A stretch of 64,000 nt of DNA from a phage: the sequence record NC_100371.1. One strand, 5' to 3'. The position numbers were made by a program, and so were the translations under genes. The notes beneath the pieces were generated by a model that saw only the letters and a list, made by a program, of their open reading frames with translations, was not told where the DNA came from and did no database searches. Every line of letters begins with the position of its first letter. The stretch's first letter is position 1. Shown in pieces: positions 46,185 through 55,824 of this stretch.

Positions 46185-46261
46185 TGGTCTCCACGGAGTG
46201 ATTCGAACACTCGACCTCCTGATCCCAAATCAGGCGCTCTACCAAGCTGAGCTACGCGGAG
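46185..46261 (-). tRNA. tRNA-Pro (anticodon UGG)
   Basis: Manual fold: acceptor CUCCGCG/CGUGGAG, anticodon arm CCUGA-UUUGGGA-UCAGG, T-arm GAGUG-UUCGAAU-CACUC, encoded CCA. Confidence 0.75.
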
Positions 46262-46272
46262 TATTTATTATT

Positions 46273-46347
46273 TGGTGGCCCTGGGTGGAATTGAACCACC
46301 GTCTGGCGATTATGAGTCGCTTGCTTGAACCTTCCAGCTACAGGGCC
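46273..46347 (-). tRNA. tRNA-Met (anticodon CAU; could be Ile-lysidine type)
   Basis: Manual fold: acceptor GGCCCUG/CAGGGCC, anticodon loop CUCAUAA, T-arm GGUGG-UUCAAUU-CCACC, CCA. Confidence 0.7.
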
Positions 46348-46348
46348 A

Positions 46349-46424
46349 TGGTGCTGATGGCAGGACTTGAACCTGCAACCTATTGATTACAAATCAATTG
46401 CACTGCCAATTGTGCTACATCAGC
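46349..46424 (-). tRNA. tRNA-Thr (anticodon UGU)
   Basis: Manual fold: acceptor GCUGAUG/CAUCAGC, anticodon arm AUUGA-UUUGUAA-UCAAU, T-loop UUCAAGU, CCA. Confidence 0.7.
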
Positions 46425-46430
46425 AAAAGG

Positions 46431-46527
46431 TGCTAGGTGATGGAATCGAACCATCTATGTATTCAACGACTACCTCGTCTATTTTCAGGATTAAAAATCC
46501 TCGCCCTTGCCAAAGGGCTTACCTAGC
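46431..46527 (-). tRNA. atypical tRNA-like gene (97 nt; Lys-like UUUUUAA loop; identity unresolved)
   Basis: Perfect 7-bp acceptor GCUAGGU/ACCUAGC, D-arm GCCC-UUUGGCAA-GGGC, T-arm GAUGG-UUCGAUU-CCAUC, but 46 nt between D- and T-arms; no encoded CCA. Confidence 0.4.
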
Positions 46528-46625
46528 TCAGCATGTTGACCATGTTGCTAGTCGGCGATGACGACTGTAACATTTGATAATCCGGTTCTGCTTCCGGCTT
46601 TCGCTTAATTACAAGGTCAACAATA

Positions 46626-46716
46626 TGGCAGAGGATAATGGAATCGAACCATCATCGAGTCATCCTCAACGGGACGGTTTTCAAGACCGCTTGAGCACCA
46701 TTGCTCCCTACCCTCT
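46626..46716 (-). tRNA. tRNA-Ser (anticodon UGA), class II
   Basis: Manual fold: acceptor AGAGGGU/AUCCUCU, anticodon arm GCGGU-CUUGAAA-ACCGU, long variable arm, T-loop UUCGAUU, CCA. Confidence 0.7.
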
Positions 46717-46830
46717 TTTATAAACAATACTGATAATGACACTGATTTTCGAGCAGTTAGTGACTAGTATAAACGACGATAAATATCAATGCCATTATCT
46801 GTATGATTTATGCATTTAAAAATATAAATT

Positions 46831-46918
46831 TGGTGGTGAGTGATGGAGTCGAACCACCCGAATCGCAATGATAACAGATTTACAGTCTGCCCCGCTACCC
46901 CTACGGAATTAACTCACC
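46831..46918 (-). tRNA. tRNA-Tyr (anticodon GUA), class II
   Basis: Manual fold: acceptor GGUGAGU/ACUCACC, anticodon arm GCAGA-CUGUAAA-UCUGU, long variable arm, T-loop UUCGACU, CCA. Confidence 0.7.
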
Positions 46919-47048
46919 TAAATACTAATATTTAAATTCTTTTTAAAATAGCTAGTGTTCTAACCACTAACTATGAGGTATCGGTAAAGTGGTTACCGCC
47001 ACTTGCCGAAGATTTACTCTGCTAAAGTAAGCTACATTAAAAAGAACT

Positions 47049-47123
47049 TGGCACCCCGTACTGGACTCGAACCAGTGTCAACGGCTTAGAAGGCCGCTGC
47101 TTTATCCACTAAGCTAACAGGGC
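47049..47123 (-). tRNA. tRNA-Arg (anticodon UCU)
   Basis: Manual fold: acceptor GCCCUGU/ACGGGGU (two G-U pairs), anticodon arm GCGGC-CUUCUAA-GCCGU, T-arm ACUGG-UUCGAGU-CCAGU, CCA. Confidence 0.65.
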
Positions 47124-49661: not shown

Positions 49662-50012
49662 CTAACCAGTTGTTGACATTCGAATAACTTCTTCTGGTGG
49701 CAAAACTTTGGAAAATGTGCATCTTTTACCTCTCCCTTGTGTGGATATTTCAACCACTCCTGCACATTCTAAAGTTTTAACGCACGCTGCTGCTTTTGTT
49801 TTCTTTATCCCAACATCTGCTGCAATTTTCCTGGTGCTGGGTGTGAAGCGTGAATTTTCTCCAAGCTTATACCAGTTGTGCAGGTAGCAGTATACGATCT
49901 TGTCATATAAGTCAAGAACAATAACCTCCCCAGTTGTGCCATTCAAAACTTTTGACATAGACAGTATTTCAAGGGGGACTTTAAGATATAGCAGCTTATC
50001 CCCATCTTTCAT
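49662..50012 (-). CDS. helix-turn-helix DNA-binding protein (116 aa)
   Basis: Segment FTPSTRKIAADVGIKKTKAAACVKTLECAGVV resembles a winged-helix/HTH; adjacent to the repeat array. Confidence 0.4.
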   Translation of the reverse strand: MKDGDKLLYLKVPLEILSMSKVLNGTTGEVIVLDLYDKIVYCYLHNWYKLGENSRFTPSTRKIAADVGIKKTKAAACVKTLECAGVVEISTQGRGKRCTFSKVLPPEEVIRMSTTG

Positions 50013-50059
50013 ATCTCCTGATTCTCCTTGTGTGGCAATTTTCTTTAAAATAGCAGGGA

Positions 50060-50614
50060 TTACTCCCCGCTGTCAATAGCAAGACTCATTGCAATACGGT
50101 ATGCCTCTTCTAATGGTAAGAGTCTCCCCCACACATCCCAACCGACATCAAACTGCCTGCCAAACAACTGCTGTGTGGTTCCGTGAGCATGACCGAACAG
50201 TTGGACTGATCCGTGAGGCTTTCTGTTCCACTTTGCAAACTGGTAATGGCTCATACAGATCAAATTCTTGTTGTGGCGAAGCTCGTAATAATCTACAACC
50301 TCATGACCGAACTCTTTCATAATTCTGACAGTCGTCCTTGTGTCATGGTTACCACGAACAAGAATAATATGTCCGTTCAACATATTTAGAACATCTGGAA
50401 GCAATTTGTTGATATTCTTATCATTAGTGCACGCAATATCCCCCAAGTGAAACACAGTGTCTGCAGGTGACACAACAGAGTTCCACTTGGTGATGATTCC
50501 CGCATTCATACTGTCAAGATTGTGATCATACTGAGATCTGTGTTTTTGACATGAGTCGAACTCCATTACCCGCTGGTGGAGAAAGTGTGTGTCGCTTGTT
50601 ACAAAGTATTTCAT
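50060..50614 (-). CDS. calcineurin-like metallophosphoesterase (184 aa from ATG at 50614)
   Basis: Motifs SDTHF, GDI, GNHD, GHAHG; start with GAGGAA RBS; ORF-track start at 50719 would overlap the kinase. Confidence 0.6.
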   Translation of the reverse strand: MKYFVTSDTHFLHQRVMEFDSCQKHRSQYDHNLDSMNAGIITKWNSVVSPADTVFHLGDIACTNDKNINKLLPDVLNMLNGHIILVRGNHDTRTTVRIMKEFGHEVVDYYELRHNKNLICMSHYQFAKWNRKPHGSVQLFGHAHGTTQQLFGRQFDVGWDVWGRLLPLEEAYRIAMSLAIDSGE

Positions 50615-50621
50615 ACATTCC

Positions 50622-51032
50622 TCATTTAAGTTTAATGCAGTTTTTAAGCTGGCGTTCCATACGATCCACAACCCTGTCTGGAACATCATGAATGCTTTTA
50701 TTACCATGGCGGTTTTCAACCACGATCACGGTATAACTATATCCATGACTGATCGCCATGTCAATATATTCTTGCACATATTTTTCTTTTGTAAACGTAT
50801 TACTTACCACGATACGGTCGTAGCCCATACGCATCATATCTTCTACGTTATCTTTGCACCATTTTGCTGCAAGTGTTACTTTACTTGCATCCCAATTGTA
50901 ATTGCCGTCATCGTCGTACCAGAACATATCGTTCTCAAAATGTGGATACAGACCTTCTAAAGATAGCGCATTTGCCAGTGTTGATTTGCCAGACCCTGGT
51001 AGACCACGCACGATATATAGCATTTTAGACAT
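50622..51032 (-). CDS. P-loop polynucleotide-kinase-like kinase (137 aa from ATG at 51032)
   Basis: Walker A IVRGLPGSGKSTLA near N-terminus; GGAGAG RBS upstream of ATG at 51032. Confidence 0.5.
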   Translation of the reverse strand: MSKMLYIVRGLPGSGKSTLANALSLEGLYPHFENDMFWYDDDGNYNWDASKVTLAAKWCKDNVEDMMRMGYDRIVVSNTFTKEKYVQEYIDMAISHGYSYTVIVVENRHGNKSIHDVPDRVVDRMERQLKNCIKLK

Positions 51033-51150
51033 AGTAACTCTCCGTTTTAATTTTAATGATAGTATACCTAACTGTTTTGTTAATTTCAAGTGTTGACACC
51101 AGGTTATTTGTGTGGCAGAATAAAGGGACAAAATGACAAATGAGGAATGT

Positions 51151-52068
51151 ATGATGAAGTATTTTAATGCAGACGACCTGGTTGACAAAGGTCTTGTAAC
51201 CAGCAGATATTACCCAGATCTTGGATTAAAGATCTACAAATATGCCAGAAAAGTATTCTACAACAATTTATGGCATTTGTCTCCGCGTTTACTAGAGTGC
51301 CGAGGCATTGTTGTCGGTAATGAAGGAAATGTTGTGGCATGGCCCTTCACAAAAGTGTTTAATTTGGGAGAAAACTCCACCAACCTGCCTGACAATAAAC
51401 TTGTGACGGCGGTAGAGAAAAAGAACGGATTCCTTGGTGTGGTATCATCTCATAAAGGTGAACTATTGTTTTCAACAACCGGGTCTCTTGATTCTCCATA
51501 TTGTAACCTTGCAAAGGAAACCATCCAGGAGCAATGTGGTAATTTAGATCTTATCAAGAAGGTTATGGGCCATGAAAACATGACATTCATGTTTGAAATT
51601 TGTCACCCTTCAGATCCGCATATTGTTCAGGAAGATCATGGCGCATATTTGATAGGTTGCAGATATAATGATTCTGGAATAATGCTACCAGAAGCAGCTT
51701 TAGATGGGATTGCCAAATACCTTGGTGCAAAACGTCCTCACACTGTGCGTGAAATTCCGTTCAGCTATGCAAAAGAATTAGCTGCAGAAACAAGGGGTGA
51801 AGGGTATATGATCCGTAAGCCTTACTACCCTTATGACCTGCAACTAAAGATCAAGTCTCCCTACTATCTGGCACGGAAGGCCGTAATGAGGTGTAGAGCT
51901 TGGAAGATTTGGGATGATGATATCTTTAAACGTGTTGACGAAGAGTTTTACGGCATGGTAAACTTCATTCGTAGGAACTACACAGAAGATGTGTGGAATT
52001 GCCTCCTGGAGCAGGAACGCCGTGAGATACTTGACTGCTATTTCCACAACGAGGACTATATGCAATGA
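51151..52068 (+). CDS. RNA ligase-like nucleotidyltransferase
   Basis: Motif I-like VEKKNGFLG (KxNG as in Rnl1/tRNA-ligase type); GAGGAA RBS before ATG 51151; divergent from kinase/phosphatase pair. Confidence 0.5.
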   Translation: MMKYFNADDLVDKGLVTSRYYPDLGLKIYKYARKVFYNNLWHLSPRLLECRGIVVGNEGNVVAWPFTKVFNLGENSTNLPDNKLVTAVEKKNGFLGVVSSHKGELLFSTTGSLDSPYCNLAKETIQEQCGNLDLIKKVMGHENMTFMFEICHPSDPHIVQEDHGAYLIGCRYNDSGIMLPEAALDGIAKYLGAKRPHTVREIPFSYAKELAAETRGEGYMIRKPYYPYDLQLKIKSPYYLARKAVMRCRAWKIWDDDIFKRVDEEFYGMVNFIRRNYTEDVWNCLLEQERREILDCYFHNEDYMQ

Positions 52069-52415
52069 AGAAGTTGATTGTGTGGCTTGATGATTTTAGA
52101 GATCCGTCAGATTATGGACTACCAGACGCTCTGTGGCTGAAGAATTCTTCTGAGTTTATGGATTTTCTTAATGATAAGAGAAAGCTCTACAGACGCGTAT
52201 CTGAGTGGTATTTTGACAATGATCTAGGGGAAGTGCTTGAAGGGTACGACTGCTTCTCTGCGCTAGAGGAGAAACTTGTATTCGGAAAGCCACCACTTAT
52301 TGACAACGTGATTATTTTCGTGCATACTTCTAATCCATCGGCAGCTCGTAAATTTATGCTTGCTGCTGACTCATTCAAGAAGTTTGGAATAGAGATCAAA
52401 CAAAACATCTACTAA
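52065..52415 (+). CDS. hypothetical protein (116 aa), translationally coupled to RNA ligase
   Basis: ATGA start/stop overlap with RNA ligase gene; no motif recognised. Confidence 0.35.
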   Translation: MKKLIVWLDDFRDPSDYGLPDALWLKNSSEFMDFLNDKRKLYRRVSEWYFDNDLGEVLEGYDCFSALEEKLVFGKPPLIDNVIIFVHTSNPSAARKFMLAADSFKKFGIEIKQNIY

Positions 52416-52423
52416 GGACATTT

Positions 52424-53185
52424 ATGCGACGACTTATTGTTATTTCTGGTGCTGGCTTGAGCGCAGAATCTGGGATCCCAACTTTTCGTTCTGGTCAAAC
52501 TGCAATGTGGGAGAATTTCAGCATCGATGAGGTGTGTAACATCCACACCTTTGCCAAGAACTACTATAAGGTGCATGACTTTTACAATGCACGGCGTGTA
52601 GCTCTGGGCAGTGTTGATCCTAACCTTGCACATCTCCGGATCGCTGAGTGGTATTCACGTTGGTCTGGTCGTGTGATCAACCTGACAACCAATGTAGATG
52701 ATTTGCTGGAGCGTGCTGGTGTTAAACATGAAGATATCTTACATGTCCACGGGTATTTGCCTGAAATCACCTACGAAGATGCTGAAGGTAATGATGTAAT
52801 TAAAAATATCGGATACACGGAGGTAGATACAGGCAAGTATACTTGGGTTAAGCCCAATGTGGTGTTCTTCGGTGAGGTTGCTCCTAAGTATACAGACATG
52901 TATGACCTATTGACATCTCTTACCAGCAATGATATGGTGATCCTGGTGGGTTGTTCTAACACAGTTATTAATTTTAACTGGGAATTGTTTCCTGCTACTT
53001 GTAAAGGCACAAAACTACTGATTGTAAACAAGTATGATTCGCAGAGTGCAGATGGAAGCGGCATTTCACGTAGCGACCTTTATCAATATGAGGATCGCGG
53101 GATCCCGGTTTGGTTTAACGGGGCGGTTGATGCTTTCTCTGATAAAACATTCATTGAGACCGTAGAAAACTTTATGGAACTTTAA
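52424..53185 (+). CDS. Sir2 (sirtuin-fold) family protein lacking zinc-ribbon cysteines
   Basis: Motifs GAGLSAESGIPTFR, NLTTNVDDL, catalytic-type HG (LHVHGYL), VGCSNT; no CxxC pairs where the sirtuin Zn module would be. Confidence 0.6.
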   Translation: MRRLIVISGAGLSAESGIPTFRSGQTAMWENFSIDEVCNIHTFAKNYYKVHDFYNARRVALGSVDPNLAHLRIAEWYSRWSGRVINLTTNVDDLLERAGVKHEDILHVHGYLPEITYEDAEGNDVIKNIGYTEVDTGKYTWVKPNVVFFGEVAPKYTDMYDLLTSLTSNDMVILVGCSNTVINFNWELFPATCKGTKLLIVNKYDSQSADGSGISRSDLYQYEDRGIPVWFNGAVDAFSDKTFIETVENFMEL

Positions 53186-53198
53186 AAGGAGACCTTTA

Positions 53199-53912
53199 AT
53201 GCTGAATACCAAATTAATTGACAACCTGGAAAAACTGTCCCAGCCTGAAAACTACCTTTGGTCTGCCAACTGGGTGGAAAACTGGAACCGTGTAGCAGCT
53301 AAAGTGAAAAAATCATACACACCATTCGAACTTCAGCTGAGTTTCATTGAGGAAGAGTTCAATGAGGTTTTGGAAGAGTTGGAGAAAGGTGATGGTGGGG
53401 ATCATCTCCTAAAAGAGGCCTGCGATCTTCATGTTGTCACAAGTTATGCCGCTTATCTTGTTAACGATAACCATGAAAAGTGGTCAAACCTGTTTGATAA
53501 TCCGCGAGGTCTTAAGTTTAAGATCGGTGAATTTTATGATACACTGATCGCTGCGAAAAATACCTCTAAGCAAAGAGCGTCTGCTTACCGCTTAGCAGAG
53601 TTGTCAACAGCTTTGCTGTTCCAGCTTCGCGGTGATGTGTGCGGGATGATGCGGAAGGTTCTAAAATCTAATGACAGCAAGTTTGCACGCGTCAACCATC
53701 TGCGGTATTCACACGGTGCCAGTGCAGATATGCCTGCTGAACAACTCATCGAGTTGGAGATTAAAGATCTTGAGCGACGCTTTGATGGTCGCTATGAAGG
53801 TTTTGTTGCTAAAGAAGAATTCTACAACGGAAATAAAGTTATCATATTCCTTGACAGTAAAGGTAAGATTATGAAGCCTTCAAGCTTCAAAGATGTAACA
53901 GAATATATTTAA
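53199..53912 (+). CDS. MazG-like nucleotide pyrophosphohydrolase domain protein (237 aa)
   Basis: N-terminal EEEFNEVLEELEKGD...EACD matches the MazG/HisE E-x2-E...E-x2-D pattern; C-terminal half unassigned. Confidence 0.4.
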   Translation: MLNTKLIDNLEKLSQPENYLWSANWVENWNRVAAKVKKSYTPFELQLSFIEEEFNEVLEELEKGDGGDHLLKEACDLHVVTSYAAYLVNDNHEKWSNLFDNPRGLKFKIGEFYDTLIAAKNTSKQRASAYRLAELSTALLFQLRGDVCGMMRKVLKSNDSKFARVNHLRYSHGASADMPAEQLIELEIKDLERRFDGRYEGFVAKEEFYNGNKVIIFLDSKGKIMKPSSFKDVTEYI

Positions 53913-53918
53913 TAACAT

Positions 53919-53947
53919 AGCCGGGGCGATCCCGGCTTTACTTGTTT
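53919..53947 (+). terminator. intrinsic terminator (plus strand)
   Basis: AGCCGGG-GCGAU-CCCGGCU hairpin followed by UUACUUGUUU, 7 nt after stop of 53199..53912. Confidence 0.6.
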
Positions 53948-54285: not shown

Positions 54286-54541
54286 TCTTGCTAAACCTGT
54301 AGAAGCACACCAGTTTGACGGAAGCTCTTCATCAGTATCTGATCTGCAACGGTGGATTGATACAGGTGTGTTTACACCGTCACCTGTTCGGACCAGAGAT
54401 ATTCTTCGCATGTGTGAGCTTGTCGAGCCGTTTGGTAACCTGGTCTTGTACCAAGGGGATTGGTTAGTTGACTTTATGGGAGACTGGTTGGTAATTAGCA
54501 AAGAAGAGATGTTTAAAATTTTTAAGGAAGAGGCTGAGTAA
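54272..54541 (+). CDS. hypothetical protein (89 aa)
   Basis: ORF with overlapping start/stop with neighbours. Confidence 0.3.
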   Translation: MQLFNLAKPVEAHQFDGSSSSVSDLQRWIDTGVFTPSPVRTRDILRMCELVEPFGNLVLYQGDWLVDFMGDWLVISKEEMFKIFKEEAE

Positions 54542-55824
54542 TGCATCAGATCAAAACAACACTGTACGCACTGAACAAAGATGGCAGCTACCAACAGTGG
54601 AAAGTATTCACGGATGGTGATAAGGTTATCGTAGAGTTTGGCAAGCTTGATGGTAAACTGCAATACAAAGAGACGATCTGCACACCTAAGAACGTGGGTC
54701 GTGCCAATGAAACTACAGCTGAGCAACAGGCTGAGCTGGAAGCGATCAGTAAGTGGGAAAAACAAGTCCGTCTGGGGTATGTTGAAAATATGGAAGATTG
54801 CGAGCAGGGTGTTGACCTTTTACCCATGTTGGTGCATGACTACCTGAAGCGTGGAAAGGCACTTAAATTACCTTGCTGGATTTTGCGTAAGTTAGATGGC
54901 CTTCGTCTACTGGTTGTTTTCCAAAACGGTGAGCCTAAATTTATTTCCCGTGGTAATAAGTCCTACCCTATTCAAGGAAAGCTTCTGGAGCAACTTCGTT
55001 CTTTCCACTTCACCACCGGGATTAAACAGCTCGACGGAGAGATCTATATTCATGGTCTGCCTCTGCAGAAAATAGTGTCTCTTGCTAAACGGTGGCGCAC
55101 ACAGGAAGAGATTCAGGCCGAGATCGATAAAGACTACGAGGCAGATAAAAAACGCCGTCATGCCGCAATTAAGGCAGGCTTATCAACATACAAAAACTTC
55201 AATAAGGTAGATATTCCTGTTGATGTTGAGCCTGTTCGTGATGATTTGCGTTACGGAGGGTACTGTAGCTATGACTTAGAGTATCATATTTTCGACATCC
55301 CTAGTGACAAGGTATGGTGGGATCCAGAAACAGAATCTGGACGATGCAAGGATCTTATGGATGCAGAAGATACCATTACCACCCTGATGCTTGACCATAT
55401 CAAGGTTGTTGACGCAGAGCTTGCGTACACAGTTGATCATTGCGAAGAATCTGTTGGTGTATTCATGTCCGAAGGATATGAAGGTACTATCATGCGTAAC
55501 TTCTGTGGTAAATATGAATATGGTCAGCGAACATCTGAAGCATTGAAATGGAAAAAGTTCAACGATGCTGAGGTGAAAGTTATTGACGTTGAGAAAGATA
55601 AGAATGATGAAGGTGTTCTTATCTGCGTTGACAAGGAAGGTATCGTTGTTAAAATGAAGATGAAAGGCACGCACGAGGAGCGTAGCTATGACAGGATGCA
55701 GGAAATGATCGGCAAGTTTATCACCTTCAAATATCAAGCAAGGACAGAAGACAACAACTACCAATTCCCTGTCGGCATCTGCGTCCGAAATGTTAACCCT
55801 GACACTTGGGAGGTTCTGGAATGA
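54541..55824 (+). CDS. ATP-dependent DNA ligase
   Basis: Motif I KLDGLR (KxDGxR) at about residue 118; size compatible with phage ATP ligases. Confidence 0.55.
   Translation: MHQIKTTLYALNKDGSYQQWKVFTDGDKVIVEFGKLDGKLQYKETICTPKNVGRANETTAEQQAELEAISKWEKQVRLGYVENMEDCEQGVDLLPMLVHDYLKRGKALKLPCWILRKLDGLRLLVVFQNGEPKFISRGNKSYPIQGKLLEQLRSFHFTTGIKQLDGEIYIHGLPLQKIVSLAKRWRTQEEIQAEIDKDYEADKKRRHAAIKAGLSTYKNFNKVDIPVDVEPVRDDLRYGGYCSYDLEYHIFDIPSDKVWWDPETESGRCKDLMDAEDTITTLMLDHIKVVDAELAYTVDHCEESVGVFMSEGYEGTIMRNFCGKYEYGQRTSEALKWKKFNDAEVKVIDVEKDKNDEGVLICVDKEGIVVKMKMKGTHEERSYDRMQEMIGKFITFKYQARTEDNNYQFPVGICVRNVNPDTWEVLE

Follow-up and report, generated by a model that had tools for sequence, protein, structure and literature searches.

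The stretch of phage DNA analysed here comprises 64,000 nucleotides (nt) of sequence record NC_100371.1, hereafter the window, and the open reading frame (ORF) at positions 52424-53185 within it proves to be a genuine sirtuin gene, intact, in an E. coli phage of the rV5-like type. The gene is the third of a compact, conserved RNA-repair operon, preceded by genes for a T4 Rnl1-type RNA ligase and for a cyclic-phosphate processing receiver-like domain (cREC) protein and followed by one for a MazG-like protein. From this context we favour, with confidence somewhat short of even, a role for the sirtuin in a nicotinamide adenine dinucleotide (NAD)-dependent step of phage transfer RNA (tRNA) or RNA repair. 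The gene product would be an active sirtuin that functions independently of zinc and belongs to a phage-restricted clade with its origin in class III, the CobB/SIRT5 branch.

The sirtuin ORF encodes 253 amino acids from an ATG start codon, with an AAGGA Shine-Dalgarno sequence 6 nt 5' of the start. Its product matches the Pfam SIR2 profile (PF02146) across profile positions 1-178 of 180 with an E-value of 5.4e-28 and a score of 98.6 bits (cutoff 24), far above chance level, and it matches PHROG 2162 ("Sir2") with an E-value of 2e-108. An AlphaFold2 model, for which the input alignment consisted of 58 diverse homologues, has a Rossmann-type NAD-binding fold plus a small lobe (predicted local distance difference test score, pLDDT, 91; predicted template modelling score, pTM, 0.89). 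Foldseek comparison of this model with the PDB returned E. coli CobB as the top match (6rxq/1s5p; E = 5e-18; TM 0.75/0.83), followed by Sir2Af and SIRT5 (E about 1e-17). The original prediction for this DNA, made from the letters and their translations, had described a phage Sir2-fold protein and had set a SIR2 profile search and a check for a Rossmann NAD-binding fold as its tests; both were run, and both bear the description out. The signature blocks that it quoted are located at residues 9-22 (GAGLSAESGIPTFR), 89-94 (TNVDDL) and 109-110 (HG).

The NAD-binding and catalytic residues of the protein are intact. They comprise G9-A10-G11-x-S13 (where x is L), F21-R22 and N90/D92 for NAD binding and H109 for catalysis, and they align with the equivalent residues in CobB. 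In an alignment of 58 representatives with less than 80% pairwise identity, each 52-61% identical to the query, F21, R22, N90, D92, H109, G110, F148, F149, E151, G176, S178 and N202 are invariant. Within the glycine-rich loop that binds NAD, S16 and G17 are invariant too, and at least 90% of the sequences retain G9, A10, G11 and S13. The pocket residues Y54 and R57 are invariant as well, and align with the Tyr-x-x-Arg acidic acyl pocket of CobB (FYNARR) and SIRT5 (FYHYRR). By sequence, too, the nearest PDB entries are CobB and human SIRT5, both class III deacylases, with 27% identity to CobB (phmmer E = 3e-21; family profile E = 2e-29), and the protein thus bears the marks of a class III sirtuin, namely the Tyr-x-x-Arg pocket and closest likeness to these two enzymes.

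The phage protein has several motifs in common with CobB and SIRT5 (GAGxS, FR, NxD, HG), as well as their FY-x-x-RR pocket for acidic acyl groups, but its sequence also departs from theirs: the zinc cysteines are missing, the Gln of TQNID is replaced by Thr (T89, invariant in the clade), and Asn183 aligns with the Pro in the V-Y-P substrate-staple motif of CobB, a Pro that the clade has lost. It differs further in that its clade is restricted to phages and linked to RNA-repair genes. Cys38, which is fixed in the clade, occupies the position of CobB Ala76. Nor is the protein a CobB orthologue, since all seven NCBIfam CobB models scored far under their cutoffs (the best, NF001753, with 124 versus 243 bits).

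The window sirtuin has only three cysteines (C38, C177 and C193), and none falls in residues 111-145, the 35-residue segment from HG to KPNVVFFGE in which the zinc-binding cysteines of CobB sit; the Cys4 zinc-binding signature of the sirtuin family is absent. Among the 120 closest homologue cluster representatives and the query, this segment holds no cysteine in 66 sequences, one in 46 and two in a single sequence, with eight unscorable, and we conclude that the zinc site has been lost clade-wide. Small-lobe beta strands are still predicted in the model at 110-118, 124-128 and 142-146, so that the ligands were lost and the module kept. The earlier claim that the Cys4 zinc module is absent is therefore right for the ligand cysteines but not for the small beta module itself. 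Zinc in sirtuins has a structural rather than a catalytic role, and activity of a zinc-less sirtuin is therefore compatible with this loss. Absence of the zinc ligands has already been reported for the Sir2/CobB protein of KVP40-like Vibrio phages (Skliros et al. 2016, Front Microbiol 7:1807; PMC5107563).

The original prediction had also likened the protein to the SIR2-domain NADases of defence systems, a comparison that did not survive the profile searches. At E ≤ 0.01 the Pfam scan of the sirtuin returned PF02146 alone, without a match to SIR2_2 (PF13289), and the PADLOC scan matched no SIR2 model, its single hit being a non-SIR2 one at E = 0.009. Because PF02146 is matched and the SIR2_2 and PADLOC SIR2 models are not, we reject kinship with the defence-type enzymes; the closest proteins are CobB, SIRT5 and Sir2Af. 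Thoeris ThsA, DSR1/2, SIR2-HerA and SIR2-pAgo do belong with the window protein to the broad SIR2 superfamily, have NAD+ as their substrate and likewise lack a canonical Cys4 zinc module, but the window protein is sensor-less, comes from a lytic phage, lies inside an RNA-repair operon and has deacylases as its nearest relatives. It is a single-domain protein of 253 amino acids, neither fused to nor paired with a sensor or partner such as SLOG, HerA, pAgo or a long C-terminal domain.

The sirtuin gene and the features around it are as follows.

46185-47123, minus strand: phage tRNA cluster (Pro, Met/Ile-CAU, Thr, Lys-UUU, Ser, Tyr and Arg-UCU), from ARAGORN and Rfam.
50060-50614, minus strand (mechanical ORF to 50719): calcineurin-like metallophosphoesterase (Pfam Metallophos and Metallophos_2; PHROG 547, E = 5e-52).
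50622-51032, minus strand (mechanical ORF to 51188): P-loop polynucleotide-kinase-like kinase with the motif GLPGSGKS (Pfam, PHROG).
51093-51121, plus strand: sigma-70-like promoter match 5' of Rnl1 (consensus scan, 10 of 12 positions plus a TG extension; a pattern match only).
51133-52068, plus strand (likely start 51151, as annotated in relatives): T4 Rnl1-type RNA ligase (Pfam, PHROG).
52065-52415, plus strand: cREC protein of 116 amino acids (PF20274, E = 1.1e-13; PHROG 1479).
52424-53185, plus strand: zinc-less sirtuin of the PHROG 2162 phage clade (Pfam SIR2, PHROG, AlphaFold2 model, Foldseek).
53199-53912, plus strand: all-alpha nucleotide pyrophosphohydrolase, MazG/PRA-PH-like, extended at its C-terminus in a way specific to the family (PHROG 671, PRA-PH orthologues).
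53919-53937, no strand assigned: GC-rich hairpin of 8 pairs, 6 of them G-C, followed by a T-run (terminator scan).
54541-55824, plus strand: ATP-dependent DNA ligase (Pfam DNA_ligase_A_M and OB_2).

The operon of RNA ligase, coupled 116-amino-acid ORF, sirtuin and MazG-like gene had been proposed in the original prediction, and it is upheld by the gene order, by an ATGA overlap of the Rnl1 stop and cREC start codons, indicating translational coupling, and by intergenic gaps of 8 nt between cREC and the sirtuin and 13 nt between the sirtuin and the MazG-like ORF. That account missed the identity of the 116-amino-acid ORF as cREC, and it also missed the divergent kinase and phosphoesterase genes. 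The RNA ligase is recognized by Pfam RNA_lig_T4_1 (E = 8e-15) and PHROG 562 (E = 2e-65), and its KxNG lysine motif reads EKKNG; the starts of Rnl1 and the kinase were taken from the annotation of phage AlexBoehm. The hairpin at 53919-53937 begins 7 nt past the MazG-like stop codon and probably terminates transcription of the four-gene operon. Ratios of nonsynonymous to synonymous substitution (dN/dS), calculated against two relatives, are 0.03-0.12 for all four genes, which are therefore under purifying selection.

The MazG-like label holds at the superfamily level only. The protein matches PHROG 671 ("nucleotide pyrophosphohydrolase", E = 5e-22), PRA-PH is matched by eight of its nine orthologues (best E = 2.6e-5), and the EExxE...D motif is present in the family alignment, but the window copy itself is sub-threshold for Pfam PRA-PH (E = 0.084), and a PDB sequence search with it gave no match.

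The kinase and the metallophosphoesterase are transcribed divergently from the four-gene operon, and with them the set needed to heal and seal RNA is complete. The kinase matches Pfam AAA_33 (E = 1e-9) and Zeta_toxin as well as PHROG 2071/505 ("polynucleotide kinase"), and promoter-like matches on the minus strand at 51089-51056 point toward its gene. The metallophosphoesterase is a candidate 2',3'-cyclic phosphodiesterase/phosphatase. Just downstream of it on the minus strand, at 49662-50012, lies a gene for a helix-turn-helix protein of 116 amino acids (DUF6945/HTH_36), for which the labels in relatives vary between "transcriptional regulator" and "DsrC like protein".

The sign of the GC skew flips at about 50000-52000. 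This position matches the switch from a minus-strand block of structural, tRNA and small genes (1-51000) to a plus-strand block of nucleic-acid-metabolism genes that starts with the RNA-repair operon.

The window belongs to a Vequintavirus (rV5-like); its locus is 96% identical to several sequenced E. coli phages, and nucleotide-level matches to it exist in 123 phage records. By tblastn, sirtuin homologues are present in 986 of 50,697 phage records, among them T5-like, Mydovirus, Phapecoctavirus, KVP40-like and jumbo phages. We surveyed the gene context of 76 fetched sirtuin loci, using seed profiles made from our own sequences and a reach of 8 kb. About 14 of the loci contain Rnl1, kinase, phosphoesterase, MazG and DNA ligase genes, with or without cREC, and Mydovirus, with a sirtuin 56% identical to that of the window, has an equivalent gene set in rearranged order. 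In 29 T5-like loci the gene for a HAD_SAK_2 "Swiss Army Knife RNA repair" phosphatase (Pfam E = 7e-18) lies 160-1143 nt downstream of the sirtuin, in four jumbo-phage loci cREC lies 0.5-0.9 kb downstream, and three distant homologues (25-27% identity) have Rnl1 and kinase genes within 3-5 kb. The link between the sirtuin and enzymes that process RNA ends is thus recurrent across lineages, although not universal.

An ATP-dependent DNA ligase was detected in 17 of the 76 loci, mostly 186-2080 nt downstream and about 6 kb away in two; the sirtuin is therefore often flanked by two lysine-adenylyltransferases. The DNA ligase adjoins the sirtuin in cREC-less loci too (for example L047 and L071). Phapecoctavirus-like and KVP40-like phages without the Rnl1/cREC set encode a DUF7277+DUF7275 protein (PHROG 2141/6944) 1.5-3 kb upstream of their sirtuin (for example L003:1799-2740 and L005:2809-3570, both plus strand, and nine further loci). 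It may be a further conserved partner of the sirtuin; a PDB sequence search with this protein gave no match. In a 279-kb jumbo-phage contig (L068:7721-9198, plus strand) a DUF4326 protein gene overlaps the start of the sirtuin homologue, and a nucleoside 2-deoxyribosyltransferase-like protein is encoded 2 nt past the sirtuin stop, a different context that looks like NAD/ADP-ribose processing.

The neighbourhood itself was described by Iyer, Burroughs, Anantharaman and Aravind (2022, Viruses 14:1977; PMC9503650, section 3.7.3), with Escherichia phage V5 as its prototype. These authors proposed that the sirtuin is a KptA-like remover of 2'-phosphate from cleaved RNAs (PMC9503650). All six members of their type 2 neighbourhood (sirtuin, T4-like RNA ligase, cREC, nucleotide kinase, MazG and, in some cases, a calcineurin-like phosphoesterase) are present at 50060-53912, and the window gene is identical to their phage sirtuin clade in family and neighbourhood, with nothing essential different. 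The gene family, its zinc loss and its neighbourhood are therefore already known, and the gene is annotated in hundreds of genomes. What we add to the published picture is the clade-wide absence of the zinc ligands, the invariant class III Y-x-x-R pocket and the boundaries of the operon.

Following the proposal of Iyer et al., the operon together with the kinase and metallophosphoesterase would constitute a module for healing and sealing tRNA or other RNA in response to the anticodon nucleases of the host. The kinase would phosphorylate the 5'-OH end of the cleaved RNA, cREC and/or the phosphoesterase would open the 2',3'-cyclic phosphate, and Rnl1 would seal the break. The sirtuin, using NAD+, would then ADP-ribosylate and remove the leftover 2'-phosphate in the manner of Tpt1/KptA, and the by-product, ADP-ribose-cyclic-phosphate, would be degraded by cREC and the MazG-like enzyme. 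What we infer here is that RNA 2'-phosphate is the substrate, in which order the steps occur and what cREC and the MazG-like protein do. A two-step logic common to sirtuins and Tpt1 makes such chemistry plausible: a substrate oxygen attacks C1'' of NAD+, and the ribose O2'' then attacks the adduct (PMC11417386). Of the three roles first suggested for the protein (NAD-dependent RNA end processing, ADP-ribosylation, or interference with host NAD-depleting defences), it is the first that the gene context favours.

The module has counterparts among known systems. It resembles T4 Pnkp-Rnl1 and bacterial Pnkp/Hen1 in combining a kinase, a 3'-end phosphoesterase and an Rnl1-type ligase against anticodon nucleases, but its end-healing enzymes, namely the kinase, the metallophosphoesterase and cREC, are separate small proteins, and an NAD-dependent sirtuin and a MazG-like protein have been added. 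The likeness to Tpt1/KptA lies in the two-step NAD+ reaction and in a context of ligase, kinase and cyclic phosphodiesterase as in fungal and plant tRNA splicing; in contrast, Tpt1/KptA has an ADP-ribosyltransferase (ART) fold and the acidic phage protein the Rossmann fold of sirtuins. In agreement with this difference, the KptA ART fold (PF01885) had no Pfam match in the sirtuin, and we claim functional analogy alone. To our knowledge, no sirtuin has a shown activity on RNA.

Several observations weigh against the repair reading. With our seed profiles, no RNA-repair gene was detected within 8 kb of the sirtuin in 11 of the 76 loci, in which several neighbours gave no Pfam hits, and in about 10 of the 76 a DUF7275 protein alone is nearby, so that the idea of a universal RNA-repair context is not fully borne out. 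The family is acidic (isoelectric points 4.6-6.05, median 5.1), which is unexpected for an RNA-binding enzyme. In bacterial Pnkp a metallophosphoesterase heals 3' ends fully by itself; the enzyme encoded here could likewise heal them alone, in which case removal of a 2'-phosphate would be unnecessary. Linkage in the early region of a phage can reflect common expression timing rather than a common pathway. A literature search on phage sirtuins, cREC and Vequintavirus Sir2 found computational and transcript-level work only, and no experiment on any phage sirtuin. Finally, since all deacylase hallmarks are retained, protein deacylation is equally compatible with the sequence.

The protein could thus be a CobB/SIRT5-like protein-lysine deacylase, possibly preferring succinyl or malonyl groups and acting on host or phage proteins during infection, the main rival explanation, which we regard as possible but rather doubtful. 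The nearest sequences and structures are all deacylases, the catalytic His109, the acyl-lysine tunnel residues F148, F149 and V181 and the class III Tyr-x-x-Arg pocket are invariant, and many protein-directed enzymes are acidic, as this protein is. Candidate roles for such an enzyme would be the reactivation of acetylated host enzymes, for example acetyl-CoA synthetase (Acs), and the upkeep of unmodified active-site lysines in the RNA and DNA ligases encoded nearby. The frequent adjacency of the DNA ligase, which includes cREC-less loci, is a hint that ligases could be clients of a deacylase. For the Sir2/CobB homologue of a KVP40-like phage, whose transcript peaks 20 min post infection, Skliros et al. 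favoured deacetylation of host Acs (PMC5107563). This protein and the T5 Sir2-like protein are homologues of the window sirtuin (41-57% identity by tblastn), but their settings differ from that of the window, the sirtuin being paired with HAD_SAK_2 in T5-like phages and having a DUF7275 protein nearby in KVP40-like phages. The deacylase explanation is weakened by the NCBIfam CobB scores, which lie far below cutoff, by the invariant Gln-to-Thr change at T89 and by the replacement of the V-Y-P Pro with Asn183, and it leaves unexplained why unrelated RNA-end enzymes (cREC, HAD_SAK_2, and Rnl1 with kinase) recur beside the sirtuin in different lineages.

A small-molecule function in counter-defence or metabolism, such as destruction or remodelling of immune signals derived from ADP-ribose, or NAD/ADP-ribose turnover together with a pyrophosphatase, with a substrate other than RNA, appears improbable. 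The DUF4326 and nucleoside 2-deoxyribosyltransferase-like flanks of the L068 jumbo-phage locus would fit it, as would an acidic surface, and the cREC and MazG/Nudix partners have been predicted to process ADP-ribose derivatives (PMC9503650). On the other hand, the protein has no likeness to defence NADase SIR2 domains, no known anti-defence family was matched, the deacylase-type tunnel is retained, and the gene is tightly coupled to an RNA ligase in the window; moreover, an NAD-consuming enzyme would worsen depletion of host NAD. Equally hard to credit is a SirTM-like macromolecular ADP-ribosyltransferase that serves take-over of the host by modifying a protein or nucleic acid, with its RNA-repair neighbours coincidentally co-expressed, for although sirtuin scaffolds are capable of ADP-ribosylation (PMC9503650) and the NAD site is intact, no macrodomain was found among the scanned neighbours in the window or six further loci, and the neighbours that recur are RNA-end enzymes.

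Returning to RNA repair, its most far-reaching version holds that the sirtuin is an RNA-directed, non-homologous replacement for Tpt1/KptA, that cREC stands in for the 2H cyclic phosphodiesterase and that the MazG-like protein clears ADP-ribose-cyclic-phosphate, and this full scheme we consider rather doubtful. If true, the phage has rebuilt a fungal/plant-type heal-and-seal tRNA ligation from unrelated parts, and the reaction would be the first of a sirtuin directed at a nucleic acid. Should the published prediction be right, sirtuin chemistry would extend from protein deacylation to RNA end processing; with homologues in 986 of 50,697 records, the system would also be a widespread phage counter-measure against tRNA-cleaving defences. 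Since the idea of an RNA-acting sirtuin is already in print as a prediction (PMC9503650), novelty would come only from experimental proof, and the locus is of value less as a new finding than as a clearly delimited object for biochemical work, BASEL phage AlexBoehm (Bas56) being one example.

The tRNA cluster, 3 kb away, provides context for a tRNA-directed conflict. One of its members, at 46431-46527 on the minus strand, has a length of 97 nt, the Lys anticodon UUU and a variable arm that is unusually long (about 26 nt); ARAGORN mis-calls a 4-base anticodon for it, and the annotation of phage AlexBoehm gives tRNA-Lys. We considered whether the gene might contain an intron requiring a splicing-type ligase, and ruled this out, the extra 26 nt being the variable arm and the anticodon loop being intact. 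tRNA-Lys(UUU) is a classic target of anticodon nucleases, and the 97-nt tRNA could therefore be a nuclease-resistant substitute. Rfam detected a further tRNA at 46834-46918 (minus strand), Tyr-like with a GUA anticodon and a long variable arm, that ARAGORN did not report, and the Ser(UGA) tRNA at 46630-46716 (minus strand) scored best on the tRNA-Sec model, under the gathering score.

A final observation concerns the database records that match the locus. GenBank MG0656xx records named as "Campylobacter phage" (H10-H12, H14-H16, H18, H19, H21 and H23 in our survey) are 95-99% identical to E. coli Vequintavirus across this locus, and these unannotated records are probably mislabelled as to host, or contaminants. 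Likewise, an 8.8-kb "Listeria phage" record (H29) carries a T5-like sirtuin.

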